Below the pieces are notes generated by a model that was not told where the DNA came from, ran no database searches, and saw nothing but the letters and a program-made list of their open reading frames with translations. This document shows positions 2,722 through 31,684 of a stretch of DNA of 64,000 bases, in pieces. Each line of letters starts with the position of its first letter. The first letter of the stretch is position 1. Location of the stretch: the IMG/VR virus record IMGVR_UViG_3300028393_000001, positions 32,001 to 96,000 of that record. One strand, given 5' to 3'. The translations under genes were made by a program, and so were the position numbers. The stretch is from a virus.

Positions 2722-3420
2722 ATGGCCAAAAAACAATTTTTCGCGATTCTCGACACCGAGACTACAATTTCGGATACTGTTGCCGATTTTGCAATTATTA
2801 TCGTTGACCGCGAAGGCAAAATTCACAATCAATGCGCGGTACTGGTTGCTGGTCATTATGGCAATCATGAGTTATTCCATGATAAAAATGCAAATGATAT
2901 TTGGGGGTACGCTGGTTTAGAAAAACGTAAAGCAAATTATGCGACAATGCTAGAATCGGGCAATCGTATGCTTGCTTCAACTAATGCTATCAATAAATGG
3001 ATTAATCAAGCAATTGGCAAGTATAACCCCTCATTGACTGCTTACAATTTGGCATTCGATTTGGCAAAATGTGCCAATACTGATATTGATTTATCAGGCT
3101 TTACTTCCAAATTTTGCCTATGGCAAGCGGCGGTAGGTAATATCTGCAATAAAAAAGCATTCAAGCAATTTGCCCTCGATAATCACGCATTTAATAATGC
3201 GACTAAACTAGGCAATATGACATTCAAAACCAATGCCGAGATTGTATGCGGTTTTATTAATAATAATTTCATTGAGGAACCACACACCGCCTTAGAAGAT
3301 GCCCGCGATTTTGAACTGCCTATTTTGACTACAGTTATCAAAAAACGCAATTGGCGCGATAATATCACTGCTTACGCTTGGCAAGATTTTCAAGTAAAAA
3401 ATCACTTTACCGCAAAGTAA
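2722..3420 (+). CDS. DEDDh 3'-5' exonuclease (DnaQ-like)
   Basis: LDTET, AYNLAFD and HTALEDA motifs. Confidence 0.85.
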   Translation: MAKKQFFAILDTETTISDTVADFAIIIVDREGKIHNQCAVLVAGHYGNHELFHDKNANDIWGYAGLEKRKANYATMLESGNRMLASTNAINKWINQAIGKYNPSLTAYNLAFDLAKCANTDIDLSGFTSKFCLWQAAVGNICNKKAFKQFALDNHAFNNATKLGNMTFKTNAEIVCGFINNNFIEEPHTALEDARDFELPILTTVIKKRNWRDNITAYAWQDFQVKNHFTAK

Positions 3421-3457
3421 AACGGTATCCAATTTGGCGATGGTCGCCAGGTTGGAT

Positions 3458-3478
3458 ATGGTCGCTTGAAGCGACCAC
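3458..3478. repeat. 21-bp palindrome, copy 3
   Basis: ATGGTCGCTTGAAGCGACCAC. Confidence 0.9.
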
Positions 3479-3547
3479 AATTTTAATCGGGTGTAATGGG
3501 GTAATTTTTCGGGTAATGGGGTAATAACTTTCATTATAGAATTGGCA

Positions 3548-3568
3548 ATGGTCGCTTGAAGCGACCCT
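3548..3568. repeat. 21-bp palindrome, copy 4
   Basis: ATGGTCGCTTGAAGCGACCCT. Confidence 0.9.
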
Positions 3569-3596
3569 TATCATTTTGATAAGGGTCTGCGCCAAA

Positions 3597-3625
3597 ATTT
3601 TATCATAAGCCTGGCCTGGTGTCAA
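3597..3625 (-). promoter_or_regulatory. Leftward sigma70 promoter (copy 3)
   Basis: TTGACA(3620-3625)-17-TAAAAT(3597-3602). Confidence 0.7.
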
Positions 3626-3712
3626 TAGGGATAAACCCTTATGTTGTATTTTTTCACACTTGCCCATTGGTGGGGTTTTCTGCTATAATAAATTTTTAAA
3701 TGAAAGGCTATT

Positions 3713-4342
3713 ATGATTAAATCTATCGGCGATAATTATGTGAGATTCGCAAAATCTGATTTTTCAGAATTACGGCGTCAATTGTCAATTCTTGAAGGTT
3801 ATATTTTTGGCAAGAATAAATCTGCAATGACTGCGGATTATTGGGGCGTATGCGAAGAAGGTGGCGAAGAAGATACCATTGTCAAATTGGCAGATGGTTT
3901 GACGGGTAAACCCTTGGGCATTACTTGGCAAAAAATCGTGAAACATTTTCCTGCACTAATTGCAGAATTAGACAAGCATGGTTTGCACTACTATATCGGC
4001 AAAAATTATGTTGGTAATTGGGGCGTTCATCGTCATATTTATGATGAATCTTCAACAATGAATTTGTGCCTGCTAGTAAACGGCAATAATGGCGGGACTG
4101 TTAACTTTCACGAATTTGACAATGATTCAGAATTTTTTGATGAATTGTCCGATGACCATATTTTCGATTTGCATCATGCATCGTTCGAAGAAGGAACAAT
4201 TACAGAATCGGTAAAGATTAAAGACGGCGACTGCTTCTCTTTTAATACTGGTCAATGGCACTCGCACATTGTCCAAGGCGAAAAAGCAGAATTATTTTTG
4301 CTACACTTTCGTGATGCCACTTCTGTACATGATTTAGCATAA
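3713..4342 (+). CDS. Hypothetical protein, possible cupin/oxygenase-like fold
   Basis: HRH and FNTGQWHSH motifs in beta-rich C-terminal half. Confidence 0.5.
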   Translation: MIKSIGDNYVRFAKSDFSELRRQLSILEGYIFGKNKSAMTADYWGVCEEGGEEDTIVKLADGLTGKPLGITWQKIVKHFPALIAELDKHGLHYYIGKNYVGNWGVHRHIYDESSTMNLCLLVNGNNGGTVNFHEFDNDSEFFDELSDDHIFDLHHASFEEGTITESVKIKDGDCFSFNTGQWHSHIVQGEKAELFLLHFRDATSVHDLA

Positions 4343-4345
4343 AAC

Positions 4346-4377
4346 AAGGGTTGCCAAATTGGCAACCCTCTTTTTTC
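4346..4377. terminator. Terminator, probably bidirectional
   Basis: AGGGTTGCCA/TGGCAACCCT stem with T tract downstream and A-rich tract upstream. Confidence 0.8.
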
Positions 4378-4381
4378 TATA

Positions 4382-4402
4382 ATGGTCGCTTTAAGCGACC
4401 AT
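4382..4402. repeat. 21-bp palindrome, copy 5
   Basis: ATGGTCGCTTTAAGCGACCAT. Confidence 0.95.
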
Positions 4403-4431
4403 TGTCATTTTGGCAAGGGGCTGGCGCCAAA

Positions 4432-4460
4432 ATTTTACTCTAACCCTGGCCCTTTGTCAA
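4432..4460 (-). promoter_or_regulatory. Leftward sigma70 promoter (copy 4)
   Basis: TTGACA(4455-4460)-17-TAAAAT(4432-4437). Confidence 0.7.
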
Positions 4461-4596
4461 TAGGTGTTTACCCCTATGTTGTATTTTCACAAAAATAAAA
4501 AATAACTTGAATTCCTGGCCTTTTGTCTATATAATAGAGGCTTAGCAGGCAGTAAAGGGAAACTGTAAAAAATCCCTGATTCTCTTGGAGTGTACT

Positions 4597-4923
4597 ATGG
4601 CAGAAAAAGCCGTCAATTATACCGCAGAACAAACTGCGGTAATGGTGTCCGATTACCAGTCGGGTGTAGGTGTGGAACAAATCGCTTTGTCGCTTGGCAA
4701 ATCGGTGCGTTCGGTGGTTGCGAAATTGTCTCGCGAAAAAGTATATGTTGCCAAAACGTATACTACCAAAACGGGCGAGGCCGTTGCCAAAAAGGATGCC
4801 GTTGCAGACGCAATCGGCGCGGTGCTCAAGCTCACTGAGGCTGAGACCGAATCCTTGACAAAAGCCAATAAAACGGCTTTGGCTAAAATTTTTGCGGCGC
4901 TTGCCAATAGCAAGCCCATGTAA
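4597..4923 (+). CDS. T5 A2-like DNA-binding protein, paralog 2
   Basis: Highly similar to 817..1200; GGAG RBS before ATG 4597. Confidence 0.75.
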   Translation: MAEKAVNYTAEQTAVMVSDYQSGVGVEQIALSLGKSVRSVVAKLSREKVYVAKTYTTKTGEAVAKKDAVADAIGAVLKLTEAETESLTKANKTALAKIFAALANSKPM

Positions 4924-4935
4924 AATTTGGCAATG

Positions 4936-4963
4936 AAAGCCCGCTTAGGCGGGTTTTCTTTTT
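4936..4963 (+). terminator. Rho-independent terminator
   Basis: CCCGC-TTAG-GCGGG plus T tract. Confidence 0.8.
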
Positions 4964-5004
4964 CCGCAATAGTTGCCTTTTTGGTAATGGTCACCAGGGT
5001 GATA

Positions 5005-5025
5005 ATGGTCGCTTCAGGCGACCAC
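5005..5025. repeat. 21-bp palindrome, copy 6 (imperfect)
   Basis: ATGGTCGCTTCAGGCGACCAC. Confidence 0.85.
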
Positions 5026-5070
5026 TATTTTTGCGAATCGTTGCCTTTTTGGCGACTACCACTAAATCGA

Positions 5071-5095
5071 TAACGGTCGCTTCAAGCGACCGTTA
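5071..5095. repeat. Palindrome, copy 7 (compensatory variant)
   Basis: TAACGGTCGCTT-C-AAGCGACCGTTA. Confidence 0.9.
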
Positions 5096-5187
5096 TTTTC
5101 GCATGCTTAAAGCATGCGCCAGTGGCTGCGCCAGTGGTCATATGAAATTCTGCTACCTCGTGTGCCCTGCGCCAGTGGCTGCGCCAA

Positions 5188-5217
5188 ATTATAACAGAAA
5201 GACTGAGGGCGTGTCAA
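5188..5217 (-). promoter_or_regulatory. Leftward sigma70 promoter (copy 5)
   Basis: TTGACA(5212-5217)-18-TATAAT(5188-5193). Confidence 0.65.
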
Positions 5218-5381
5218 GTAAATAATTTCTTACTTGAACCTGGTAGTCGGTTCCGCTATAATAATTACTTAGACAGGCAGATAGGGCCAAACGGGTACAA
5301 GAAGCGCAAAATTTCTTATTTGACTCTCAGCCCCTAATGCCTTATAATTTATTCATAAACAAACAAACCAAAGGAAGCAAA

Positions 5382-5693
5382 ATGACCGCAAAAATCGTAA
5401 ACTACACCGCAGACCAAGTTGAGAAGTTGGTCGCAGACTACCAGTCGGGCCAATCGGTCGAGATGATTGCTGACAGCCTAGGCAAGTCGGTGCGCTCGGT
5501 TGTGGCTAAGCTCAGTCGTGAAGGCGTGTACCAAGCTAGGAGCTACGTCTCTAAGACTGGTGCAAAGCCTGTTAAAAAGGACCTGGTTGCTGACCAGATT
5601 GCCAATATCCTCCTGCTTACTGAAGCAGAGGCAGATAGCCTGACCAAGGCTAACAAGACCGCCCTGACTAAAATCCTGGCTGGCTTGCAGTAA
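5382..5693 (+). CDS. T5 A2-like DNA-binding protein, paralog 3
   Basis: Same motifs as 817..1200; AAGGA RBS before ATG 5382. Confidence 0.75.
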   Translation: MTAKIVNYTADQVEKLVADYQSGQSVEMIADSLGKSVRSVVAKLSREGVYQARSYVSKTGAKPVKKDLVADQIANILLLTEAEADSLTKANKTALTKILAGLQ

Positions 5694-5724
5694 ACGCCGC
5701 AGTTTAGGGTCAAGAAATATTCAC

Positions 5725-5753
5725 TTGAATCATGACCCTAAACCTTGTATAAT
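5725..5753 (+). promoter_or_regulatory. sigma70 promoter of the large ncRNA, overlapped by an 11-bp inverted repeat
   Basis: TTGAAT-17-TATAAT; GTTTAGGGTCA(5702-5712)/TGACCCTAAAC(5733-5743). Confidence 0.75.
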
Positions 5754-5757
5754 AGAT

Positions 5758-6506
5758 TTATGATTAGGCGATAACATAATAAAAATTATAATTCGCCGAC
5801 TCATAATGCAGGAATCGGAAAAGTTAGTAGCTGGTTCGATGCCAGCCCCGTCATCTTAGGGTGCCGGGTATGCTTATGTAGGTAAAGCGACCACTTCCAG
5901 CCTGCAGAGAGGTACCGATCCTCCAAAAACGGCTGTGGTTGGGGGTAACATCTGAAGATAGGAACCCTGGGGTTACTAACACCATCATGAAAAGTTAGGG
6001 GAGAAAGAACTTCCGATCAAATACAGCTATCATCTAACAAAGATCTGGGTTTCATCCAGCCATGTAGGTATGGACTCCTACTAGCGCACGGACTTATACA
6101 CGTAGAGTCATAAAATATACGCGGTCGAATAGCCTATGTTACAGGCTTGACTAGGCAACTTTGAAGCATACTCCAGCTAACCACTGGCTAAGGCGCTCAG
6201 GTTTAGGGTCAGGTAAGGGGTGTGGTGCCCTGAGCCAACATGGAGAGTACAATGACAGTAACTATCCCAAACAAAAAACTGTTACTGAGGAAACCAGCAG
6301 AGAAAGGCAGTATGTAAGCTCCGGCTGTGTACGTTCTCTATAGGATAACCGATTAAAATTAGCACAGTTAGATAAGCTCTGACGTTCTCTACTACCATAT
6401 AACCCCTGACAAGGTTGCGGCTAGAGGCTCACCTTACGACTGTAGGCCTGTCAAGCCTTAGCTAATCAACTAGCCCCTACGGAGTCATGCCCGTAGGGGC
6501 TTTTTG
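5758..6506 (+). ncRNA. Large (~750 nt) structured non-coding RNA, family not recognised
   Basis: Promoter-to-terminator unit with no credible ORF; many helices including long-range 5814-5825/6008-6017 and 6143-6156/6446-6458; T-loop-like hairpin at 5830-5846. Confidence 0.7.
6472..6506 (+). terminator. Rho-independent terminator
   Basis: AGCCCCTACGG/CCGTAGGGGCT plus T tract. Confidence 0.9.
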
Positions 6507-6554
6507 TTGCTTAAAAATAAAGAACCTGCAGAATTCTGGACGTCCGGCGCCAAA

Positions 6555-6583
6555 ATTATACAGTGCCTGAGTGAGTTTGTCAA
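6555..6583 (-). promoter_or_regulatory. Leftward consensus sigma70 promoter (copy 6)
   Basis: TTGACA(6578-6583)-17-TATAAT(6555-6560), then TTTGGCGCC. Confidence 0.75.
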
Positions 6584-6824
6584 GTGTGGATTCCTCATCG
6601 TCTGAAGTGCCGCTGAATACAAGTCTGTTTTTTAAGGTGCCCTCTAATAGGTAGTCTGTTAATGAAACTCATAGGTTTTGTTTTTAAAAATTAGTGTAAC
6701 CTCTAGGTTCTGACCCTAAGCTGCCCAAATCAGGGCCCAGTTGCCCCTGAGTGCCCGAAATTAGCTTAATCTGACATAATTCGAGAAACCTGCGGAAATT
6801 TAGACATTTAGGACTTTAAAACGA

Positions 6825-6856
6825 AAAAAAGCCCCCTACTTTGACATAGGGGGCTA
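6825..6856 (-). terminator. Terminator of the A1-A2 unit
   Basis: AGCCCCCTA/TAGGGGGCT stem with A tract on the plus strand. Confidence 0.85.
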
Positions 6857-6862
6857 ATTGGC

Positions 6863-7165
6863 CTAATTTAGGGTCAGTTTCTTCTCAATTAAGGCTAAAA
6901 CTGACTTATTTACCTTCTCCAGCGATTCAAGCATATCCGAATTTACATCTAGTAGCTTAGCGATGCGCTCTATATATTCGTCCTTCTTCACAGGAACTTC
7001 ACCACGCTTGGTCAAGTACTCCTTCTTTTTGTACACGCCCAGACTGCTTAGCTTAGCGATGACTGATCTTTCTGGAACGCCCAGACCCTCAGCTAAAGCA
7101 GACACTGGCACTCCGGCCAAGTAATCCGCTTGTAATTTCTTTGTTGTTAGTTCGTCGTATTTCAC
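6863..7165 (-). CDS. T5 A2-like DNA-binding protein (next to A1)
   Basis: RSVIAKLSSLGVY and ESLEKVNK motifs; synteny with A1-like gene. Confidence 0.75.
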   Translation of the reverse strand: MKYDELTTKKLQADYLAGVPVSALAEGLGVPERSVIAKLSSLGVYKKKEYLTKRGEVPVKKDEYIERIAKLLDVNSDMLESLEKVNKSVLALIEKKLTLN

Positions 7166-7168
7166 TGC

Positions 7169-8035
7169 TTATTCCCAAGGTAATTTAGTTAGGGTAGTCC
7201 ACTTGGCTACTGGTTCTGTTTTGATAAGAGGTTCTGGGTGACTATCCCAATTTAAGGGATCACAGATCATGTCTTGATGTCTAAGGTCTGGATGACAGAC
7301 CCAACACTGTGTAATCATTAGTCTTGATAGCTTATTAAGTAAGCCAATCTCGGAATCATTAATACCATATAAAATCCAAGCAGCCTTAGGGTCTCTGCTG
7401 GTACCTTCACGAGGGCCTGATCGGACTAGGAGTCCTTCCTGGCGCAGCCTTAGTAACTCACCTATCTCGATCTCAGGCCACTCGGTGATACAGGCTTCAG
7501 CTAAGTCTTCTGGCATTACAGCCTCTAAACCTTCACGAGACCACTTAGAGTAGGGCACTCCCTGATAACGCTTAATTCCAGCTAAGATAAGTGGAGTTAA
7601 TGAGGAGAATTCTGGTTGTGCAATCTGTTTAGGCACTAGCTTGCTACGAGGTAATCTGCAGGCTAAAAACCAGCATCCTCGACTAAACTCTGACCCTAAG
7701 TTGAGCTTAGCTGTGCTTCTTGGGTCTACTAAACCATCTTTATACACTAAAGTCCATTGACCAAAATAGTGTAAGAGCTGGTCTAAGAACCAGCTAGACT
7801 GGCTAGCAAGTCCTACGGAGTCAGCTAGTTGAGCTAAGATAAGTGGGTTAGCCGTGTTAAAGGCTTGGATCGGCCAAGCCGTTAAATCCCGTTTTTTGCC
7901 TCGCGGCAGCTTATCGGGGGTGGGAATTTCAGTTCTATTTTGCATTTTTAAGATTAATTTTAGCTTTTTAAAATGGGATTTCTCCAACTTAGATGGAGGA
8001 ACAGGGGGACCCTCAATTGCAGACGGTTGCTGCAA
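7169..8035 (-). CDS. T5 A1-like protein (host DNA degradation / DNA transfer), short version
   Basis: PLILAGIKRYQGVPYSKW and QCWVCHPDLRHQDMI...EPL resemble the T5 A1 C-terminal half as recalled; real start may be ATG 7945. Confidence 0.7.
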   Translation of the reverse strand: MQQPSAIEGPPVPPSKLEKSHFKKLKLILKMQNRTEIPTPDKLPRGKKRDLTAWPIQAFNTANPLILAQLADSVGLASQSSWFLDQLLHYFGQWTLVYKDGLVDPRSTAKLNLGSEFSRGCWFLACRLPRSKLVPKQIAQPEFSSLTPLILAGIKRYQGVPYSKWSREGLEAVMPEDLAEACITEWPEIEIGELLRLRQEGLLVRSGPREGTSRDPKAAWILYGINDSEIGLLNKLSRLMITQCWVCHPDLRHQDMICDPLNWDSHPEPLIKTEPVAKWTTLTKLPWE

Positions 8036-8137
8036 ACATATCCTGTTGCTTCAAAAAATGGGATTTTTGTGTACGAACAGGGGTTTGCGCTGTCTGTTGA
8101 GGCCCCCCGTTGTACTGTATTCTTTGAATATACAATA

Positions 8138-8166
8138 ATTATATCACACTTTTTTTCATAAGTCAA
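8138..8166 (-). promoter_or_regulatory. sigma70 promoter for A1-A2
   Basis: TTGACT-17-TATAAT on minus strand. Confidence 0.75.
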
Positions 8167-8282
8167 CTACTTTTTTAAGCAAGGGTGAAAATTTACTAGA
8201 ATATGACCAGGATAGTGGGAGATTAACTTATTGAGGAAGGGTTCCCTTTGTAGGAATTCCCTCCGATGGCGGCGGTTTAGGG

Positions 8283-9170
8283 TCAACTAATTGCTGCTTG
8301 CTCTAGTAGTTGACGATGCTGAATCCATGACCTGAAGTTAGCAGACCACAGGGTGTTGAGCACGTCCATATGAGTCACGCCCTTTTCAACATCTAGGAAC
8401 GAGCCTGAGCGCATAGGAGTTGCCTGATGCTCGAATGGACTCGCATGCCAAGGACGTGCTTTTAACAGTCGTTTAGCTATACGTTCAGCTTTCTCTAGGC
8501 TTCGGTCTTGAAGTCGGTAACTTACCTGAGCACAGCAACTAGCTGAGATTAAACGTGCAGAGGCACGATCTAAGATGGTATCATCACCATAAAAAATTTG
8601 TCCAGACTCATCCTGACGGCGAGTCACATAGGGAACGTGCCAGTCACCTGCGTGTAGTTGCAGGGGCTTGCTTTCCAGAAATGCTTGACCCATTACCTTA
8701 GCTAGGGTTTGTATTTCCGGCTGAGCGTCTTCATGATCTCGCAATTCAAAAAAGTTCGCCCATTCAGTAGCTGTTAGGACTACACGAATCATCTGAAAAG
8801 GCTCAGTGACTCTGTTAACTATCTGCTTGTGAAGACCTAAACCCTTTAAGGTCTCTGCGTAGTCTAAGGCTGAGTAGCGTGCTGCATTCCAGTAGGTAAC
8901 AGCAACTTGGGTATCATCAATCTCCTCACGAGCCTGCATACCTGATTGCGCTCGGCCCCAGAATACAGGCTCTGCTGGGTTTGCGCTGACTAGCTGAAGC
9001 ATATCATCAACTGGTACAGCTCTTGAACTGGCAGAGTTTCTAGAGAACTGACGATGCGTAAGTACTTCAGCGTGGATAAAGCGAGGATACTCTAACTCCA
9101 GGGTAGTGATACGAACTCCGTTTGCTATGGAGTCTTGAACTACATTAGCGGTAATATTAGTTGTTTTCAT
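8283..9170 (-). CDS. thyX: Flavin-dependent thymidylate synthase (phage type)
   Basis: PRFIHAEVLTHRQFSRNSASSR, FFELR..AQPEI and HASPFEH motifs. Confidence 0.85.
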   Translation of the reverse strand: MKTTNITANVVQDSIANGVRITTLELEYPRFIHAEVLTHRQFSRNSASSRAVPVDDMLQLVSANPAEPVFWGRAQSGMQAREEIDDTQVAVTYWNAARYSALDYAETLKGLGLHKQIVNRVTEPFQMIRVVLTATEWANFFELRDHEDAQPEIQTLAKVMGQAFLESKPLQLHAGDWHVPYVTRRQDESGQIFYGDDTILDRASARLISASCCAQVSYRLQDRSLEKAERIAKRLLKARPWHASPFEHQATPMRSGSFLDVEKGVTHMDVLNTLWSANFRSWIQHRQLLEQAAIS

Positions 9171-9354
9171 TGGTAATCTCGGTAAAAAGTGATCTTCTTA
9201 TGTTTGGTCCTAGGACCCTGTCTAGCATTTCTCTAGTGCGAGAGATCATTCCACAAGCTAGGATTAGCATATCTCTGTGGTCATCACATTGCATGATGGC
9301 TTGATCGATGAGTACGAGTAACTCATCGTGTCGTTGTTGTCTTTGTTCACTCAT
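9157..9354 (-). CDS. Hypothetical protein (paralog of 18563..18763)
   Basis: LID.AI...D....L.LA..M..R pattern shared. Confidence 0.65.
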   Translation of the reverse strand: MSEQRQQRHDELLVLIDQAIMQCDDHRDMLILACGMISRTREMLDRVLGPNIRRSLFTEITNENN

Positions 9355-9970
9355 CTAGTTCCTCTACAAGGGGTGCCCCTAAAGTGCTGGTTGAAAGTTT
9401 ATTTTCAAAAAGACAAATAAATGAGTAAATAAATAGACCGTCGCGGATTCCCACTTGGTCTATTAATTTAACGTCTTGGACGTCGTGATTCTGCTTACAG
9501 TGCTTACAGTACACATACTTAATCATTGTTCTGGATCTTCCATGCTAATCTGAACCTGACGAACGCACTGTTTTAAAGTCTCTGTGAGTACGTCTATGTT
9601 AGAATGGTCTACGTGTAAATCTGTTAGCCTATGCTCAATAGAGCACGACTGATTCTTGTGAAAGTCACTTTCGTGTGTTACTTTAATTATCCACATTTTT
9701 TATCCTAAGTCCTAGCAAGCGGAAAAATAGTTGCCTAAAAAAGTTCTGCGGCCTCTTAGTCCTGAACACTAATTCATCTGTGTTAATATAGAAATTACCG
9801 CCTGAAATATTACTAGAGGTAATAAGGTATCCACTATCAATAATCTTAGAGGTAGTAGTCCAGGCCTTAGGTATTAAATGGTCGTCTAAGTCTAAGGGAA
9901 TCTGCTCCTGCATGGGCCAAAATAGTTTAAGTTCAAGTTGTTGCATTACTATCCTTAAAATGTTCTTGAA

Positions 9971-10171
9971 TCATTGTTCAACTCCAAAGTGTTCCATAAT
10001 CTCACCCATCAATGCGTAGGCCTTATGGTTGTAACCTATACCTAAACATTCTCTTACAATCAACTCGGCGAACTTTTCTTGATCCAATGTCATAATCGGT
10101 GTGTAGCCCCCATCTGTGTAGTACGCAACCTTTTGTGCCTGTTCAGCAAGTTTTCGAATTCGTTCGTTCAT
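9971..10171 (-). CDS. Small 'MNERI' family phage protein
   Basis: MNERIRKLA...FAELIVREC...FGVEQ. Confidence 0.7.
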   Translation of the reverse strand: MNERIRKLAEQAQKVAYYTDGGYTPIMTLDQEKFAELIVRECLGIGYNHKAYALMGEIMEHFGVEQ

Positions 10172-23504: not shown

Positions 23505-23547
23505 ATTTTTTACTTGAATTATATAGTGTTTTACTGTATAATTGATA

Positions 23548-23639
23548 TTTATAAGGGTGGAAAGCGGATGCAATTCACGGCACGCTTCCTTAATTGTGGC
23601 GAATAACTTATCCGAGCCACAGCCCAAAGCCCTCATAAA
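23548..23639 (+). ncRNA. Helix-closed structured RNA
   Basis: After promoter 23514-23542; TTTATAAGGGT/GCCCTCATAAA closing helix with two inner stems. Confidence 0.5.
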
Positions 23640-23640
23640 C

Positions 23641-23766
23641 AAAAGTTCAGACAGTTCTAGACTGGCCGGATTAGCAACTGTGCGTAGATAACCCACGACT
23701 AGTAGTGCTCGGCCGAGCACCGAAAGCGTCCATGCTACGACATTGTTAATAGTTTGCTGAACTTTT
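23641..23766 (+). ncRNA. Helix-closed structured RNA
   Basis: AAAAGTTCAG/CTGAACTTTT closing helix; inner GTGCTC-GGCC-GAGCAC hairpin. Confidence 0.55.
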
Positions 23767-23856
23767 CTTTATGGGTGTTATGTGTTCCCCGCCCATGATA
23801 GGGAGTAACAACTTAATTGCAGGCGAAATCACTACCTGTAGCCCACCGTAATCTTT

Positions 23857-23931
23857 GCTCGATTCGTCTATCGGTTAGGACACCAGCCTTTCACGTTGGT
23901 AAGACCGGTTCGATTCCGGTATCGAGTACCA
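23857..23931 (+). tRNA. tRNA-Glu(TTC)
   Basis: Cloverleaf, CCA end. Confidence 0.95.
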
Positions 23932-24075
23932 AATTTCTATGTTGTTCTAGTTTGCTAGAGCACTTAGACACCCAAGATCAGACCAACAGTTAGTAATGAT
24001 AGATTATTTATAATCCGTCGAAACCTGCGGTGGCGTAACAACTGACTGAACTAGGCTGTCGCCTTGACCTAGTTC

Positions 24076-24224
24076 CTATTATTTAGTGTTATCAGGGTAT
24101 CGTCATAGGACGCTATGACTATGCGGGCCTAACTGTGCGAGGAACAGGTCCTAATATAACTGCTAGTCGCTTGCCAGAGGAAGCACCTTTGTTGGCAAAT
24201 TGGCACGATAGCACTAAATAATGG
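24076..24224 (+). ncRNA. Helix-closed structured RNA
   Basis: 18-bp closing helix 24076-24093/24207-24224 with several inner stems. Confidence 0.65.
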
Positions 24225-24227
24225 TAG

Positions 24228-24378
24228 AGAGTTAATGTTAAAAATGGGTACTCAAAATATCCGTTCTTGAAGGTTCAATTCCTTTAATTTGTAGTCAGGT
24301 GAGAAGCGTGGGCAAAGGTTAGAGATCAACTAACCGCTACAGATAATATGGTTATTAAGTAATAAAAACATAGACTCG
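24228..24378 (+). ncRNA. Structured RNA with T-loop-like hairpin
   Basis: AAGG-TTCAATT-CCTT; ends pair imperfectly. Confidence 0.45.
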
Positions 24379-24474
24379 CCATATATTAGCATTCTGTAAT
24401 TCAAGAGGCAGAGAAGCCCTTTAATATGGGGTGTCGTGTAGATTTCAAGTATCTACCAGAGTGCTAATATATGG
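24379..24474 (+). ncRNA. tRNA-like cloverleaf on an 18-bp extended acceptor helix, no CCA
   Basis: D-like arm, GCCCT-TTAATAT-GGGGT arm and GTAGAT-TTCAAGT-ATCTAC arm. Confidence 0.6.
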
Positions 24475-24555
24475 GAGAGTACGGGTGATATGTAAGGGTT
24501 TCTCTAAGCCCTGATGATTGGAATTCCTAAGTTAGCCAACAACTAACCCCATAAC

Positions 24556-24659
24556 TTATCCTTCTGATGAGCTTGTGAAATTCAAGCGAAACTCTAACAC
24601 AACCCGCTAGGGTCTTACCCTTTCAACCTAGTTTGAGGCGTTACGAGTCAAGGAATAAA
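24556..24659 (+). ncRNA. Type I hammerhead ribozyme
   Basis: Stem I TCCTT/AAGGA, CTGATGA 24564-24570, stem II GCTTG/CAAGC, GAAA 24588-24591, stem III CTC/GAG, GTC cleavage triplet 24647-24649. Confidence 0.88.
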
Positions 24660-24716
24660 AAAGATAGCCGTGTTGCCACTTATAGTATTGCGTCGCCGCT
24701 GGAACTAATTCCTCTT

Positions 24717-24752
24717 AGCCCTGTAAGGTTTGCCCTTACAGGGCTTTGCTTT
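24717..24752 (+). terminator. Terminator of the ncRNA operon
   Basis: AGCCCTGTAAGG/CCTTACAGGGCT plus T-rich tail. Confidence 0.8.
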
Positions 24753-24836
24753 CACTAAAATATGTTACCATAAAAATTTTAGCTGTTGACATAAGATGCC
24801 ATAACTGGTATAATAAGGCAAAATAAAGGTCTACCA

Positions 24837-25031
24837 ATGAGTTCTTCTTATACCTATGTCAAAGAGTTAGAGTTATTAATTTTGGATAAATTACTTCCTG
24901 TTTATGAAAAGCACCAGAAGTCTCAAGGAGTAATAAGCCCCTTTCAGGGTATTAATCAAGATTTATTATCTCAGATAAAAGCAAAGAAAAAACTCCCTGC
25001 GCTCCTTAGGGCTAAGGAAAAACACACTTGA
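24837..25031 (+). CDS. Hypothetical protein
   Basis: Follows TTGACA-16-TATAAT. Confidence 0.6.
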   Translation: MSSSYTYVKELELLILDKLLPVYEKHQKSQGVISPFQGINQDLLSQIKAKKKLPALLRAKEKHT

Positions 25032-25268
25032 CCTGGCCAGAGAATTCAAGTATAATTACTTATTGCGCGGAATTTGGCGTTGTCCGCGTTTATTTAAATT
25101 AATCATAACTGTCTACAATTCATCATCGAAGCACGGCTCTGCACAGCCACGCAGGACAGACTGAATGTAGTATAATAAGTCTTTTTGCAGAAAGCATATA
25201 CGGTAGTCTCTTTTACAAGAGATTACTATAGTATTTAAGGTAAGTACTATACTAATCTTTATAATAAC

Positions 25269-25733
25269 ATGATAACACCTACAACAATACCAGCAATACC
25301 AGCAATAACTCCTGAAGAGCTAAAAGCCCTCTGGCCAGACCATCCAGCACATAGTACGGATACCGCAACAACAGAAACATTTACTGACCCTAAATCGTGG
25401 CCGTTTCCAGAAATAGACCATGACTGGAACCGCTTAGCAATAGACCTAAACACTCTTCCTCAAGACTCAACCCTTCAAGTCTTAGATGAACGTGCAAAAA
25501 ATTACGGTAAGTTCTCAGGTATTGGACAACTTACGCAGACGTTTAAAGAGATTATGCGCCAAGCCCCCTCATGGGAAGGGATGCAGCCAGATCAAAAGGA
25601 GAGCCTGGAGATGATAGTGCATAAGCTGGCGCGAATTCTTAACGGAAACCCTGACTACGCAGATAGCTGGGTTGATATTGCTGGTTACGCACGCCTAGTA
25701 TCAGAACGTCTAGAAACAGGATTAGAAAGATAA
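25269..25733 (+). CDS. Phage protein, DUF6378-like
   Basis: ER...YG.F, QKESLEMIVHKLARILNG and DSWVDIAGYA motifs. Confidence 0.75.
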   Translation: MITPTTIPAIPAITPEELKALWPDHPAHSTDTATTETFTDPKSWPFPEIDHDWNRLAIDLNTLPQDSTLQVLDERAKNYGKFSGIGQLTQTFKEIMRQAPSWEGMQPDQKESLEMIVHKLARILNGNPDYADSWVDIAGYARLVSERLETGLER

Positions 25734-25765
25734 ACTTGATTTAGTAGTTAAATCTATTTATAATA

Positions 25766-26779
25766 GTGGCTATGTTTAATCAAAATCAAAAACGCGTTGG
25801 CTTTGCGTGTAAAATTCAAAGCCAAGAATCTACAGATTTAGCCAGTTGTAAGACCAAAGGTACTACAATTACATGGCTAAATAGCCAAACTAAACAAGCA
25901 GCCGCAGAGCGACTGTGGACCTTAATGCAAACTAATATAGCAGCCCTTAGTGCACAAGCAGATTGGGTAGCACAGCAACCACCAGGTTTGCGAATGTTTC
26001 GCCTAAGCAGCGACTTACTAACTGCATACTCTCACGATGACTGGATGTGGTTTTACTTTCAATCAGATGTAGTAGACTTCTTAGAACGGAATCTACTAAA
26101 AATCGGTGATAAGTTCCGTGCAGCAGATGTACGTGTTAGCTTTCATCCAGGTCAGTTCTGTGTCTTAGCATCAGATAATCCAGGTGTAGTTGAAAATTCA
26201 ATTACCGAGTTCGAGTACCATGCCGACCTTATCAGGTACATGGGCTATGGTAAAAAGTTTCAAGACTTTAAATGTAATGTACACATTGGCGGTAAACAAG
26301 GCCCCAAAGGTATTATCTCAGCCCTACAACGACTAACACCCGAGGCCCGTAATTGTTTAACTATTGAGAACGCAGAGTTTACCTGGGGTTTAGATGCCTC
26401 ATTAGAACTAGTAGACCACTGTGCCTTAGTCCTAGACATTCATCACCACTGGATTCATTCAGGAGAGTATATTAACCCAGAGGATAGTCGTGTTAAACGA
26501 ATTCAAGAATCTTGGCGCGGTGTCAGACCAGTTATCCACTATTCAGTTAGTAGGGAGGACGTACTCCCAGATCATTGTGGACGAACACGGCCTGACCTCC
26601 GAGAGCTTAAATCAATGGGATTTACAGCAGCTAAACTCCGAGCACACTCAGAGTTCTACTGGAATCAAGATGTAAATCAGTGGGCTACCACTTTCCTAGA
26701 CCACGCCGACATTATGTGCGAGTCTAAGCAGAAAAATACTGCCTCTGAACAGTTTGCCAAAGAAGTAGGTCATGTATAA
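25766..26779 (+). CDS. uvsE: UV damage endonuclease
   Basis: GFAC, MFRLSS, SFHPGQFCVL.S, TIEN, LDIHHH and IMCESK motifs. Confidence 0.92.
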   Translation: MAMFNQNQKRVGFACKIQSQESTDLASCKTKGTTITWLNSQTKQAAAERLWTLMQTNIAALSAQADWVAQQPPGLRMFRLSSDLLTAYSHDDWMWFYFQSDVVDFLERNLLKIGDKFRAADVRVSFHPGQFCVLASDNPGVVENSITEFEYHADLIRYMGYGKKFQDFKCNVHIGGKQGPKGIISALQRLTPEARNCLTIENAEFTWGLDASLELVDHCALVLDIHHHWIHSGEYINPEDSRVKRIQESWRGVRPVIHYSVSREDVLPDHCGRTRPDLRELKSMGFTAAKLRAHSEFYWNQDVNQWATTFLDHADIMCESKQKNTASEQFAKEVGHV

Positions 26780-26868
26780 TATACTACAAGTTATAGTGGG
26801 TATTTATTTATTTGAAATACTTACAGCTATAGTAATAGCTATATGGTTTCATTATAGGGGTTATTAGT

Positions 26869-27138
26869 ATGATACACGTATACGCAAGATTAGATAATCC
26901 AGTTGGAGAGCACGACTACCACAATTTGGGTTGCTATAATAAACAGCTTACTAAAAATAAAACACTAGAACTTGAACACAGTTTTTACTTAGGCATACTA
27001 TTTGCCCTAGACTTTCAATTCTATCCTCGCGCAGATCATGGCGGATTACGAATACACTTAGGCCTATTAGGTTACAATGTTGATTTTCAAATTCGCGATA
27101 ACAGGCATTGGGACGGTGATATGAATGACTGGCATTAG
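26869..27138 (+). CDS. Hypothetical protein (similar to 20590..20835)
   Basis: NP..., LE and G..I.L.LLG pattern. Confidence 0.6.
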   Translation: MIHVYARLDNPVGEHDYHNLGCYNKQLTKNKTLELEHSFYLGILFALDFQFYPRADHGGLRIHLGLLGYNVDFQIRDNRHWDGDMNDWH

Positions 27139-27203
27139 TATAATGGATAATACAGGGGATTTCTACTCCCTAGATGTGGGTTCGATTCCTGCATGCCGGA
27201 CCA
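27129..27203 (+). tRNA. tRNA-Arg(TCT)
   Basis: Cloverleaf, CCA end. Confidence 0.9.
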
Positions 27204-27469
27204 AATTATTAACTTGAATCTCTAGTTAAAATCAGTTATAATAAATCTTTTCGGAGACTACTATGGCAGGATATTCAAGAGAATTTTTAATTGATGCCTT
27301 TGTTAGCCGTTATGAGGTACTTAGTGACGAAGTAGTCGCTAGACAAAGGCAGTTAGCAGAAAAAACATACGATGAAGTTGGTAAAGATAAATTCCGTGTT
27401 CTTGCATCTTTAGATGCAGATGCCATTAAGGAATTTAAAGTTGCAACGGGTCGTAAAGGATAATTAGTT

Positions 27470-27558
27470 ATCTAAGATGTGCACCGCGTACCACCTAGCC
27501 CCTTGGCAATATTAATTGCGAAGATTTTAATATATAGGGCGCATCGCACATCTTAGAT
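27470..27558 (+). ncRNA. Helix-closed structured RNA
   Basis: Perfect 13-bp closing helix ATCTAAGATGTGC/GCACATCTTAGAT. Confidence 0.6.
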
Positions 27559-27564
27559 TTATAT

Positions 27565-27653
27565 GGAGACGTGTGCCGAATTGGTTGAAGGCAAGGGACT
27601 GTAAATCCCCCACATAAGAAACGCTGTAGGTTCGAGTCCTACCGGCTCCACCA
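27565..27653 (+). tRNA. tRNA-Tyr(GTA)
   Basis: Cloverleaf with long variable region, CCA end. Confidence 0.92.
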
Positions 27654-27698
27654 TTATCTTTGAAAGTATTACTACTAGTAGTAGTTTCAAAAATAATC

Positions 27699-27774
27699 GC
27701 CCCGGTGACGGAATGGTATACGTACTGGTCTTAGAAACCAGGTTCTGGGAGTTCGAGTCTCCCCTAGGGCACCA
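27699..27774 (+). tRNA. tRNA-Leu(TAG), short variable arm
   Basis: CTGGT-CTTAGAA-ACCAG anticodon arm, 76 nt. Confidence 0.9.
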
Positions 27775-27779
27775 CTTAC

Positions 27780-27856
27780 CCGTGTATAGCGCAGCCTGAT
27801 AGCGCATCTCGTTTGGGACGAGAGGGTCGAAGGTTTGAATCCTTCTATACGGACCA
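27780..27856 (+). tRNA. tRNA-Pro(TGG)
   Basis: Cloverleaf, CCA end. Confidence 0.9.
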
Positions 27857-27874
27857 ATAAAAAAAGGAATTACT

Positions 27875-28318
27875 ATGTTAGTAGATAATATGAAAACCCT
27901 TATAGGGTCAACCTTTAGCCTTTACATTAAAGCTGCTAATTTTCATTGGAACATTGAAGGGGAAAATTTTCCTCAATATCATGCTTTCCTAGATAATTAT
28001 TATAATGATGTTTATGGTACAATTGATCAAGTTGCCGAATATATTCGTGCCCTAGATAGTTATACACCAGCAAGTTTAAAGCGTTTTCAAGAGTTAACTT
28101 TTATTCAAGATCAAACTATGCAACAACCCCCTATGGGAATGTTTCAAGAATTGTTCAATGATAATGCAACAATGTTAAAGTTTTTAACTGATACGTTTGA
28201 TGTAGCTACTGCGGAAAGACAGCAAGGAATTGCTAATTTTATTGCTGAAAGAATTGACGCGCATCAGAAACATCAGTGGATGATTCGCAGTATTTTAAAG
28301 AGCGTAGCTTCTCTATAA
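27875..28318 (+). CDS. dps: Dps ferritin-like DNA protection protein
   Basis: NFHWNIEG..F..YH, D.VAEYIR and HQKHQWM motifs. Confidence 0.92.
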   Translation: MLVDNMKTLIGSTFSLYIKAANFHWNIEGENFPQYHAFLDNYYNDVYGTIDQVAEYIRALDSYTPASLKRFQELTFIQDQTMQQPPMGMFQELFNDNATMLKFLTDTFDVATAERQQGIANFIAERIDAHQKHQWMIRSILKSVASL

Positions 28319-28329
28319 AAAGCTAAAAC

Positions 28330-28403
28330 GGGCTTATAGTTAAACGGTATAACGGTAGCTTTGCAAGCTTCAATTCGGAGTTCGATTCTCCGTTGGTCCA
28401 CCA
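28330..28403 (+). tRNA. tRNA-Ala(TGC)
   Basis: TGC anticodon, G3:U70 pair, CCA end. Confidence 0.88.
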
Positions 28404-29204
28404 CTTACACACACAAGGACATAATATGTTTTCACTAGATTTTTACATTGACTCTTTTCAATCAACAAAAAGAGCTTTAACCAATCAGGTCTTTACTGAC
28501 CCTAAACTGAACAAGGCTGCAAATAAATTTATTGACGCACAAACTCAGTTTGCAAAAATGCTTGCACAAAATACAGTAGATATGCTAAAGTATTCCGCCG
28601 ACGCTGTTACTAACAAAGCATTTCCAAAGGCGACCAAAAATGACACCGTTTGAAATTCGTGCAGACCTGCTTAAACTAGCAGCAGATCACCTAGAAAAAC
28701 AGTTTACAGCAAATGTAAAGTTTGCAACAGAATATAACAAGGCTATGTTCCAAGCAGGAACTGCTGCTGCTACTGAAGCCTTAGTTAAAATGCCTACATA
28801 CTTTACATCTGAAGATGTAATTAAAAAGGCAACAGAATTTTATAGTTTTGTTCAAACAAAATGAAGTTATTTAAGTGCTTAAAACAATTCTTTGAGCCTA
28901 AAAATCCAATGCAAGATTTCATTGAGCGTCATAATCCTCAATCGGTTTATGATGTAGAACGATTGCAAAAAGAGTACGACAATCTTATATTTAAACTTAA
29001 GTAATATGCCCCTAGTAATTAAAGACCGTAAAGTAGTTTATCAGAAGCCAACTGTGGATGAAATGCCTAAGATTGGTAAATATGTTAGCCTGAATCCAAT
29101 CTTTCAAATGCATCGGGCACACGCTCATATTAGAAATCTATCAGAATCTATGAGTGTACTACAACGTAGTTTAATTCCTGGTGCATTAGAGCAATTAAAA
29201 TAAT

Positions 29205-29280
29205 TCCCTAGTAGCACAGCGGTAGTTGCACTTGACTGTTAATCAAGTTGTCCGTGGTTCGATCCCACGCTGGGGAGCCA
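29205..29280 (+). tRNA. tRNA-Asn(GTT)
   Basis: Cloverleaf, CCA end. Confidence 0.93.
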
Positions 29281-29381
29281 TAAAATAGGCCTAAACAGGC
29301 TAGTCCAGGTGCAAGTCCTGGAATTTGTACTTGAATTTTCCTTAAAAATCAATTAAAATAATCCTTTAACTAGGAACACTT

Positions 29382-29846
29382 ATGATTAAACTAAACGACT
29401 TTTTAAACATTACCGAATATGAAACTGGACACCTTGAGGTTGTCCATCAACAAGACGTATATGGCAAAACTGCTATTAGTCTTGAAGTCTATGGCTTTGA
29501 ATTTAATAAACTAATATGCGTATATGATATAGTATCGCAAGAAGTCCTAGAAATCATAGCCAAAGACGATGCTGCTGGTAAAAGTTATGTGTGGCAAACT
29601 TCAGACATTAAAGGTTTAGGCAACTATCGCGACTACCTAATTGAGCTAGAAGCAGAAGAAGATATTTTAGAAAAAGCTGAAGCTATTTTCTTTAATAAGC
29701 CTTATGATTCACGAATAGTTGTTCCTATTGATATTAAAGACGAAGACTTCCTCTTATACGCAAAAGCTGCACATAAACTAGACATTACTATTAATGAGTT
29801 TATGGAACAAGCCATTCAGGAAATGGTAGAAAAATATAAAGGATAA
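29382..29846 (+). CDS. Hypothetical protein with C-terminal ribbon-helix-helix-like segment
   Basis: AHKLDITINEFMEQAI. Confidence 0.6.
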   Translation: MIKLNDFLNITEYETGHLEVVHQQDVYGKTAISLEVYGFEFNKLICVYDIVSQEVLEIIAKDDAAGKSYVWQTSDIKGLGNYRDYLIELEAEEDILEKAEAIFFNKPYDSRIVVPIDIKDEDFLLYAKAAHKLDITINEFMEQAIQEMVEKYKG

Positions 29847-30371
29847 CATATGAACGTAAACAGAGTTTCTCTTCAAAAGGAAGAAGTGTACCGCCAGTGG
29901 GAAATTAAAAAGTTAGACAAGCGGCACGAAGAACTTCGAATAGAAGAACAACGTGCTAAGTTAGATCTTATAGACAATGAGCAAGCAAGAGTTGAAATGA
30001 ATCGTCGAATGAATCGTCCAGGACAAAATGTAGATAGGATGGCATAATGGCGAAACCTAAACCAAAACGTAAACCCACGGGGGCTATCGACATTCAGCCA
30101 GAAGGTCCACACGTTCCGGCTATGCCTCCAGTACAAGGAAGTTCAATGATTAGTCCAGTAAGTCCCGTCGAGGCGGGTGGTGGAACGTATAACCGTCCAC
30201 CGCCTAAGCCTCAACCTTCAAAACCAATGAAGACTCCTAAACCTAAACCTCCGATGCCTAAGGCTTAGTATGCCCAGTCCTCGTAGAACCAGTCAGATTT
30301 TAAAGGGGAAGAAGCCGCCTAAGCCCCGAAGCCTAAATGCAATGGCTAAAAGATCGGCGCGCAAAAAATAA

Positions 30372-30458
30372 GGAAGATGTGTTGCAAGGTGCAACAGAGG
30401 CTTGCTAAGCCTTCGTCTAGAAATAGGCCGATAGGTTCGATTCCTATATCTTCCGCCA
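30372..30458 (+). tRNA. tRNA-Ser(GCT)
   Basis: Long variable arm, G73, CCA end. Confidence 0.9.
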
Positions 30459-30461
30459 CTT

Positions 30462-30536
30462 AGCCGTGTAGCTCAGAGGAAGAGCAAACGCTTGATAAGC
30501 GTTAGGTCGACATCTCGGAATTGTCCATGGCTACCA
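30462..30536 (+). tRNA. tRNA-Ile(GAT), atypical T-loop
   Basis: Cloverleaf; T-loop CTCGGAA. Confidence 0.85.
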
Positions 30537-30763
30537 TAATTATCATTAGAAGGATATAATATGAAATACCAAAATTCAATGTGGGGCGATTACAGCCCTA
30601 CTCCAGCGGTTGAACAGATCGGCGTGCAGATAGAAGCAGACAATCAACCTGAGATGGTTGTAACAGCCCAACAAATGGCTACAGACCCCTCGTGTACTAC
30701 AACAGAGGATATGATTGCAGCAATGGGTACAGTACCAGCACGCTCATAAAGCTAATTTTAAGT

Positions 30764-30838
30764 GTCTCTCTAGTGTAATGGCAGCATCACAGATTCCAAA
30801 TCTGTTAGGTCAGGGTTCGAGTCCTTGGGGGGATGCCA
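30764..30838 (+). tRNA. tRNA-Trp(CCA)
   Basis: Cloverleaf, CCA end. Confidence 0.9.
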
Positions 30839-30858
30839 ACTTTTTAACAGGATATTTT

Positions 30859-31278
30859 ATGAAAAAATTTATTTCAATTGCCGTTATCTCTTTTGCTGGC
30901 GTTGTTAATGCCGGAGAAATTACAGCCTCCTACTTAACCGATAGCGGACGTGATGGATATGCCATTAGTACACAGGTCAAAGGCGTTACCCTTGGAGCCT
31001 CACACGTTGATCGTGTTTATGACCGCTTCTCAGTAGGTAAATCTTTTGATATTGCTAAAGTCGGACCACTACAACTAGCAGCAGGCGGAAGCGGAGTATA
31101 TCAAAGTACTCTTGCTAAAAATGATAGTGGTTATGGCCTAGCAGCTCAGGTAACAGCAACTGCTGCGGTCAATAAAAACGTTGACGTAGTTGCTGGCGTA
31201 CAGAAGTTCTGGGGACAGGACCGCGTGAGTGCTCAAAATGGTAACTCGGCTACTGTTGGAATTAAAGTTAAGTTTTAA
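30859..31278 (+). CDS. Outer-membrane beta-barrel protein
   Basis: Signal peptide MKKFISIAVISFAGVVNA, amphipathic strands, terminal VGIKVKF beta-signal. Confidence 0.75.
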   Translation: MKKFISIAVISFAGVVNAGEITASYLTDSGRDGYAISTQVKGVTLGASHVDRVYDRFSVGKSFDIAKVGPLQLAAGGSGVYQSTLAKNDSGYGLAAQVTATAAVNKNVDVVAGVQKFWGQDRVSAQNGNSATVGIKVKF

Positions 31279-31281
31279 TTT

Positions 31282-31378
31282 AAATACACTACTTGCCACT
31301 TAATAAATATATGCGGAGACGTTCCGGACTGTGTCATTCCGCGGGTAACTGGGAGCACCCAGCATAGGTAGTGTGTTT
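31282..31378 (+). ncRNA. Helix-closed structured RNA
   Basis: AAATACACTACTT/AGGTAGTGTGTTT closing helix. Confidence 0.55.
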
Positions 31379-31386
31379 TTTATTTT

Positions 31387-31680: not shown

Positions 31681-31684
31681 ATAC

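Follow-up and report, generated by a model that had tools for sequence, protein, structure and literature searches.

The locus considered here raises the question of what a phage encodes in a stretch of about 750 nucleotides (nt) that holds only a short open reading frame (ORF). The stretch occupies positions 5758-6506 of the window, i.e. the whole 64,000-nt piece of DNA that was analysed, taken from a virus record of 123,962 bp (bases 32001-96000), which has direct terminal repeats and a completeness rating of 100%. It sits between the gene of a small DNA-binding-like protein (5337-5693) and a leftward operon, and the phage carries a single copy of it. A preliminary description had proposed a large phage non-coding RNA, possibly of a new class; this proposal is borne out by a transcription unit of its own, the non-coding character of the stretch, covariation, high contig depth in RNA libraries and the absence of a matching Rfam family. 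The analysis identifies, with a probability of roughly three in four, an independently transcribed plus-strand non-coding RNA of about 750 nt in a freshwater phage of 124 kb, belonging to a modular family built around a conserved hub.

The transcription unit is delimited by the following elements:

5704-5743, no strand assigned: inverted pair (G)TTTAGGGTCA / TGACCCTAA(AC) straddling the -35 box, a possible operator (exact motifs at 5704 and 5733)
5725-5753, plus strand: sigma-70-type promoter TTGAAT-17-TATAAT, with 10 of 12 consensus bases
6472-6506, plus strand: intrinsic terminator, an 11-bp stem with 8 G-C pairs followed by the T-run TTTTTGTTG

The promoter had been announced as a consensus one; it is indeed present, but its 10 matching bases make it near-consensus, while the terminator deserves to be called strong. 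Both can be compared in four sequences that form the window-type sub-lineage (the window and the loci L002, L296 and L279): the -10 region GTATAATAGATT is identical and the terminator is kept in all four. The inverted pair at the -35 box is conserved in L279 and partly in L296. As already described, coding content is limited to a weak 60-codon TTG ORF (6161-6343), the longest on either strand within the stretch, and its frame is broken by a 46-nt indel in L296, L279 and one RNA contig. The plus strand is predicted to fold at -234 kcal/mol (z = -3.9, equalled by 0 of 20 shuffles), the minus strand with z = -1.4.

Public sequencing data indicate that the stretch is represented in RNA. Twenty-four runs are listed as holding part of it, six of which are lake metatranscriptomes; four lake RNA runs, from four coded studies that possibly belong to one campaign, were compared over positions 3000-10000 and contain these contigs:

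5854-6168: RNA contig of run X4, depth 179.6
5818-6238: RNA contig of run X23, depth 284
5815-6433: RNA contig of run X21, depth 70.2
5806-6407: RNA contig of run X20, depth 9.8

Depth over the flanks is 0-8 in the four runs, where uncovered parts are no evidence of silence; in X4 and X23, whose flank contigs reach 2-8, the contig depth over the RNA is 20-100 times that of the flanks. Further contigs match the hub only and then diverge, one of them at depth 99.1, thus other family members are also found in RNA. The contig starts (5806, 5815 with adapter-like letters, 5818 and 5854) fall in a strain-variable zone and were not used as RNA ends; the hairpin at the 5' end of the stretch lies outside the listed contigs, since these start at 5806-5854.

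Homologues were collected using the neighbouring protein gene as anchor, which gave 76 loci; nhmmer found a full-length homologue in L002 and a conserved core of about 80 nt in L040, and iteration together with pattern scans extended the hub RNA family to 43 related loci (36 distinct sequences), which lie on contigs from phages and metagenomes. With the most specific pattern, 37 of the 49 stretches retrieved from viral contigs were true members, as were six of the 117 matches listed for metagenomes (L279, L237, L250, L296, L316 and the partial L307); none was found among the 119 matches listed for cellular genomes, which does not prove absence from cells. A looser pattern, AAAGAA..AAATACAG, gave no convincing match to the R1 model in the 80 listed of 115 stretches from viral contigs (best E 0.047) and no nhmmer match in the other 35. 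The hub lies within 4 kb of the anchor in 5 of the 76 protein-anchored loci and elsewhere on at least 18 of the 76 contigs, judged by contig names. Neither the DNA nor the neighbouring protein has a match among cultured phages, and no description of the hub RNA family was found in the literature, in a search that did not extend to supplements such as the list of phage YrlA RNAs (PMC4201824 Table S2). The RNA is a member of a previously uncatalogued modular family of phage RNAs.

What is common to all 43 members is a hub of about 90 nt, made of a hairpin with the invariant loop AAAGAA and a four-way junction, joined by the linker UAAAAUAC. In the window, the hub and the hairpin that precedes it comprise:

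5943-5967, plus strand: hairpin P(-1), GGGT/ACCC stem and conserved loop RACA...AGGA, in 29 of 43 members
5999-6014, plus strand: hairpin P0, invariant hexaloop AAAGAA on a covarying stem of 4-5 bp (5 of 5 pairs with two-sided changes, 92.8% paired)
6015-6089, plus strand: four-way junction of the hub with linker ..AAATAC (R1 model, 87.2 bits in the window)
6026-6029/6082-6085, plus strand: helix P1 (AGCYA/URGC), which encloses P1a, Pa and Pb (covariation)
6032-6035/6041-6044, plus strand: short helix P1a (UCU/AGA), read by eye and by RNAalifold
6045-6049/6055-6059, plus strand: variable hairpin Pa (covariation)
6064-6068/6077-6081, plus strand: hairpin Pb, stacked on P1 (covariation)

Covariation among homologues is strong, both in the hub and in the tRNA mimic described below. 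In a MAFFT alignment of 13 sequences, not fitted to structure, 88.0% of the cells in hub helices are paired versus 70.0% after shuffling, and 54 cells changed on both sides versus 19.7, values that 0 of 500 shuffles reach; slid controls are 31-45% paired. In a model-fitted alignment of the 36 distinct sequences, 94.7% of 680 cells are paired versus 74.0% in shuffles, the cells with two-sided changes number 132 versus 41.3, and 15 of 19 pairs are compensatory, while slid controls give 25-44%. In P1a, UCU/AGA becomes GCC/GGC in L030. P(-1), accepted in a screen that demanded at least 3 of 4 pairs, has four stem variants with 116 of 116 cells paired among the accepted members; in L002, the closest relative, a P(-1) module of about 65 nt is tandemly duplicated (960-1065). 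A minimal member occurs in L096 (1160-1310, on the same contig as L237), where the hub stands alone in about 150 nt, right after a small ORF and with a terminator of its own. This hub-only form shows the hub as the putative functional heart of the RNA.

The pair table also contains 28 G-U or U-G cells in the hub helices on the plus strand, which would turn into A-C mismatches if the opposite strand or the DNA were the folded form, and thus argue for a plus-strand RNA. This is relevant to the idea that the stretch acts as DNA, as a replication origin, an injection stop or a regulatory region, its transcription being incidental. Indeed, it holds the recurrent DNA motif TTTAGGGTCA, and a conserved leftward promoter abuts it; but the G-U cells of the covarying helices, the strand-specific excess of folding, the T and D loops of tRNA type, the same-strand hammerhead core of the relatives and the 20- to 100-fold contig depth in X4 and X23 make a DNA-level role highly improbable.

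Upstream of the hub, the window-type RNAs carry a circularly permuted tRNA mimic that lacks an anticodon and resembles the YrlA class of Y RNAs:

5807-5906, plus strand: whole YrlA-like mimic (Rfam YrlA, 33 bits, and covariation)
5807-5812/5901-5906, plus strand: closing helix
5817-5820/5895-5898, plus strand: helix GGAA/TTCC
5823-5825/5889-5891, plus strand: helix GTT/GAC
5830-5846, plus strand: T-arm with UUCGA loop
5847-5868, plus strand: closed 9-bp acceptor-like hairpin
5872-5888, plus strand: D-arm-like hairpin with GG in the loop

In the four sequences 95.9% of the cells of the mimic are paired versus 86.4% in shuffles, none of 500 reaching the observed value; two-sided changes affect 8 of 31 pairs, of which the acceptor-like hairpin contributes five, and identity to the relatives is 72-85%. 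The element GCTGG-TTCGATG-CCAGC, earlier called T-loop-like, proves to be a real T-arm, as indicated by Rfam cmscan and covariation. The pairing TGCAGG/CCTGCA is also real, with compensatory changes in L002; it is the nested closing helix of the mimic and not the pseudoknot that had been suggested.

Scanning with Rfam 15 at gathering thresholds, the models of GOLLD and ROOL included, matches nothing in the stretch, and YrlA (RF02553) at 5806-5910 is the only notable match at E<=10 (33 bits versus a threshold of 69, E 4.5e-05; 30.1 bits in L002). In the study by Chen et al. 2014 (PMC4201824), YrlA is defined by a tRNA-like domain, a Ro-binding module with the motif GNCGAAN0-1G and a location beside Ro60. 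The mimic shares with the YrlA described there the entry stem, the T-arm with UUCGA loop, the closed acceptor-like stem-loop and the D-arm with GG, in the same permuted order. For the YrlA of M. smegmatis, whose acceptor stem has 7 bp, cleavage by RNase P and addition of CCA are reported (PMC4201824); the 9-bp acceptor-like stem of the mimic resembles it, and by analogy an RNase P cut in this hairpin is conceivable.

The RNA could then be a true Y RNA of the YrlA class, which is known to bind Ro60 and to be modified by TruB/DusA; it would work with a host Ro60/Rsr protein, its extra 600 nt being an appended module that tethers an effector. This would agree with the only Rfam signal obtained, with the order of permuted T-arm, closed acceptor stem and D-arm and with the Y RNAs already known from phages, both given in PMC4201824. 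The score, however, is less than half of the 69-bit gathering value, and the YrlA model also gives sub-threshold matches in 13 of 14 control genomes. The motif GNCGAAN0-1G has no regular-expression match in any of the four window-type RNAs, and the Ro-binding stem positions are deleted in the YrlA cmscan alignment. A search of the complete phage record (123,962 bp) for a TROVE/Ro60 gene (PF05731) gave nothing at E<=1, while the control matched 2 genomes; the host may still have such a gene. Furthermore, of the 750 nt no more than about 100 belong to the tRNA-like module, whose place is taken by a hammerhead in 29 of 40 relatives. A Ro-dependent Y RNA is thus very unlikely.

This hammerhead is a complete type I core, located about 30-200 nt ahead of the hub in 29 of the 40 members for which 300 nt or more of upstream sequence are available; an identical screen of reverse complements, of downstream sequence and of 800 shuffles detected none. 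In order, the core comprises CUGANGA, stem II closed by a G-C pair, GAA, stem III with A-U as its first pair, GUC and stem I, and stems I-III covary. Judged from sequence, the relatives resemble the type I hammerhead (RF00163) in the CUGANGA core, stems II and III, the GUC cleavage site and the open stem I, and differ from it by a long insert of 41-50 nt in stem III, the Rfam models missing the element. The cores are unannotated; they lie in L040 (about 5640-5730), L362, L366, L338 and 25 other loci, and in many relatives the putative cleavage site GUC falls inside a recurrent phage motif, YUUAGGGUC-A. The arrangement occurs on neither strand of the 64-kb window; the window, L002, L296 and L279 have the YrlA-like module instead. 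Two strings of the window RNA, CUGAAGA (5953) and CUGAGGA (6283), were considered as hammerhead parts and rejected, since they are not conserved in L002 and no full arrangement is present.

A genuine tRNA-Glu(UUC) is found in ten further members, at a distance of 410-690 nt on the upstream side of the hub. The presence of either a hammerhead or a mimic in the same upstream place, with a tRNA-Glu further upstream in some members, suggests that these elements are swapped cassettes serving the formation of RNA ends or RNA stability.

A second ORF-less RNA unit of the phage lies at 23509-23931 on the plus strand, with the promoter-like sequence TTTACTTGAAT..TGTATAAT; its RNA of about 300 nt contains two CUUAAUUG...CAGCCC modules and runs directly into a tRNA-Glu(UUC) gene (23857-23931). 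The motif of this "5' domain" is found in the upstream sequence of 20 relatives, directly upstream of the hub RNA in those inspected; thus the two units are linked there and split about 17 kb apart in the phage. The same distance separates the hub RNA from the tRNA cluster, outside which it had been placed in the preliminary description; the phage has 24 tRNA matches (window region 23857-37115).

The remaining parts of the RNA are organized as follows:

5758-5806, plus strand: 5' hairpin with GGCGA/TCGCC core and an AU-rich apical hairpin (minimum free energy folding and RNAalifold; one pair changes on both sides)
5909-5923, plus strand: small hairpin GAGG/CCTC (RNAalifold; stem invariant and loop variable in L002, so no covariation)
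5935-6184, plus strand: central domain closed by the predicted helix GTGGTTGG (5935-5942) / CTAACCAC (6177-6184) (RNAalifold)
6186-6463, plus strand: variable 3' domain closed by the predicted helix GGCTAAGG (6186-6193) / CCTTAGCT (6456-6463) (RNAalifold)

When the four sequences are folded jointly over their full length, RNAalifold again yields the 5' hairpin, the mimic, P0 and the junction. The 5' hairpin TTATGA..GGCGA/TCGCC..TCATAA of the preliminary description is thus predicted by both methods, while other pairings proposed there fare differently. The helix 5814-5825/6008-6017 has to be abandoned: it clashes with P0 (5999-6014), which covaries in 36 distinct sequences, and it is broken in L002 and L279. 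The pair CAGTAAC/GTTACTG falls with the optional insert in which it lies, seen only in the window and L002. The pairing 6143-6156/6446-6458 is outside the RNAalifold consensus, where 6186-6193 pairs with 6456-6463, and GCTCAGG/CCTGAGC is weaker in L296 and pairs in a shifted register in L279. The central domain is 93.7-96.3% identical in L279 and L296, versus 85-86% at the third codon positions of the neighbouring gene. The 3' domain, 42-79% identical to the relatives and with many indels, contains a TTTAGGGTCA copy (6202-6211) and the optional insert (about 6239-6284), which is missing in L296 and L279 and skipped in the X20 RNA contig; both this domain and the mimic evolve faster than the central domain.

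Such a mosaic architecture might also be that of a precursor of several independent small RNAs (the mimic, the hub RNA and 3' pieces), modules that would share only promoter and terminator. The hub of L096 alone, with its own terminator in about 150 nt, the swapping of 5' modules among members and the poorly conserved 3' domain would be in line with this, as would the hammerhead of the relatives, which implies cleavage into at least two pieces, and the separate locus of the phage's "5' domain" RNA (23545-23856). Conversely, the predicted long-range helices, invariant and known from prediction only, enclose the hub (5935-5942/6177-6184) and the 3' domain, and single RNA contigs span 5806-6407 and 5815-6433, although contigs do not prove single molecules. 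The precursor explanation is accordingly the more doubtful one, while still deserving attention, and one continuous RNA with a hub is preferred.

Phages are known to encode few families of very large structured RNAs, chiefly GOLLD and ROOL, none of them with a known function; GOLLD, encoded near tRNA islands, is known to form a homo-oligomeric RNA nanocage. The hub RNA resembles both in being encoded by a phage, in its several hundred nt and in its high abundance; its architecture is analogous to that of GOLLD in that a conserved region adjoins a variable 5' one, tRNAs occur within the locus or beside it, and A-rich loops are invariant although their stems covary. A recent preprint (bioRxiv 10.1101/2024.12.08.627333) attributes to GOLLD a conserved 3' region, a variable 5' region and linker tRNAs, as well as A-minor contacts made by loops that are rich in A and sit on variable stems, and traces its name partly to lake metagenomes.

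A very divergent member of GOLLD, or of ROOL, invisible to the Rfam models, could have such a setting: the hub RNA is phage-encoded and 0.7-1.2 kb long, its conserved hub is combined with a 5' part that varies, 10 members have real tRNA-Glu genes within the locus or beside it, and A-rich loops are conserved where their stems are not; the GOLLD name, moreover, is partly derived from lake metagenomes according to that preprint. Nevertheless, RF02032 (GOLLD) has no match at E<=10 in the records of the phage and of four relatives; the same is true of RF03087 (ROOL), a weaker result, as its control genomes matched nowhere either. Neither family is listed in whole-library cmscans of the window at gathering thresholds or of the stretch and the relatives at permissive E-values, and the permissive scans of the relatives' RNAs list no known family. 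The hub itself matches no Rfam family and the window RNA lies about 17 kb from the tRNA island; the likeness to GOLLD is an analogy of architecture, and a hidden GOLLD or ROOL is hardly probable.

Permuted transfer-messenger RNA (tmRNA; RF04321/RF01850) offers a further comparison, in that a permuted tRNA-like part is attached to a long structured RNA and the stop-bounded string GCU-AUC-AUC-UAA of the hub resembles a short tag. The appearance is reinforced by conservation that ends at the stop codon and by an in-frame 3-nt insert in L071. The tag reading was nevertheless rejected: what looks like an Ala codon, GCY, is one side of helix P1 and covaries with URGC on the other, the change from GCU to GCC being mirrored by that from UAGC to UGGC, L030 has no stop there, and tmRNA models have no match in 5600-6700 at E<=10. 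In addition, the acceptor-like stem has no conserved G-U and the tRNA-like part is missing from most relatives. A permuted two-piece tmRNA gene of beta type is found elsewhere in the window, at 31336-31679 (116.9 and 136.8 bits). A likeness of P0 and its linker to the pistol ribozyme was also considered and discarded, as cmscan gives no Pistol match and the hub is a four-way junction.

Several observations weigh against the proposed RNA and its modular interpretation. Assembled contigs carry neither strand nor ends, and depth is one figure per contig that cannot rank genes; DNA is possible in RNA libraries, and the RNA runs were picked because they hold the stretch. The model-fitted hub alignment leans towards the structure to which it was fitted. 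Both long-range helices are invariant and rest on prediction, the central 330 nt being nearly invariant in four sequences. Rfam hammerhead models do not match the relatives even at E<=5, a failure that the 41-50 nt insert in stem III would explain. Pairing in trans with the 5'-domain RNA that the phage encodes at its separate locus was rejected, since the hub RNA has no complement to it longer than 8 nt, and shuffles do as well. Finally, an RNase P cut in the acceptor loop would leave both pieces base-paired, thus the mimic would not be a simple equivalent of a hammerhead that removes a leader.

The surroundings of the RNA show further features. Three small proteins, encoded at 4585-4923 and 5337-5693 on the plus strand and at 6863-7165 on the minus strand, adjoin the RNA in many relatives and are conserved; two are clear paralogues with the motif SVRSVVAKLSREGVY, the third has a similar motif, and their only matches are weak and sub-threshold (GcrA, a D5-like regulator and a transcription regulator). 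About 3 kb upstream, a protein similar to polynucleotide kinase/phosphatase is encoded at 2137-2688 on the plus strand (phrog_415, E 1.3e-21). Enzymes of this type heal RNA ends, and a link between the protein and the RNA is speculative. Immediately past the terminator, a perfect leftward promoter (TTGACA-17-TATAAT, 12 of 12 bases) occupies 6555-6583 on the minus strand; its sequence is conserved in L040, L015 and L296, and it would direct antisense transcription into the terminator hairpin. A weak minus-strand match to the Rfam trpB motif (E 0.27) was also obtained. The recurrent 9-11-mer that forms the inverted pair around the -35 box is present once inside the RNA and also at other operon borders: TTAGGGTCA is found at 5704, 6203, 6868 and 8277, its complement TGACCCTAA at 5733, 6711, 7691, 15820 and six more sites of the window. 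Within the RNAs of relatives, base pairing between the motif and its complement is conceivable, and the motif may have its role at the level of either DNA or RNA.

A possible course of events for the RNA can be outlined from these data. Host RNA polymerase has a near-consensus promoter at its disposal, and the transcript ends at the intrinsic terminator. In most relatives the hammerhead would cut off the 5' leader, while RNase P may cut the mimic in the loop of its acceptor-like hairpin, as reported for the M. smegmatis YrlA (PMC4201824); the 5' module, ribozyme or mimic, would set or shield the 5' end and so lengthen the life of the RNA. Tentatively, the hub and the 3' domain might form a compact particle through A-minor contacts of the invariant A-rich loops. 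While the phage takes over its host, such a particle might, again as a tentative suggestion, have a scaffolding or sequestering role as a stable RNA, along the lines proposed for GOLLD and ROOL. The favoured function, if only as a cautious choice, is that of a stable RNA for scaffolding or assembly, owing to the parallels with GOLLD (variable 5' region, linker tRNAs and A-rich loops, as given in the preprint); a decoy of host factors that bind tRNA, a novel ribozyme and a precursor of smaller RNAs rank lower.

More boldly, and with considerable doubt, the RNA could represent a new class of large ornate phage RNA, in which the hub would be either an assembly module of RNA only, of a third nanocage type beside GOLLD and ROOL, or a new catalytic or ligand-binding fold, combined with interchangeable 5' cassettes: mostly a hammerhead, sometimes a genuine tRNA-Glu and, in the lineage of the window, a Ro-independent mimic of YrlA type. 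If this were true, tRNA mimics and self-cleaving ribozymes would be swapped as equivalent devices for the maturation or stabilization of RNA. The family adds at least 36 distinct members from uncultured freshwater phages without a close relative in the cultured-phage collection; its compact, strongly covarying hub is well suited to structure work, and the occurrence of a hammerhead, a real tRNA or a mimic in the same position is a natural experiment. A YrlA-type mimic without a phage Ro60 gene widens the possible roles of such RNAs, which may include end formation, stability and the capture of tRNA-binding host proteins.

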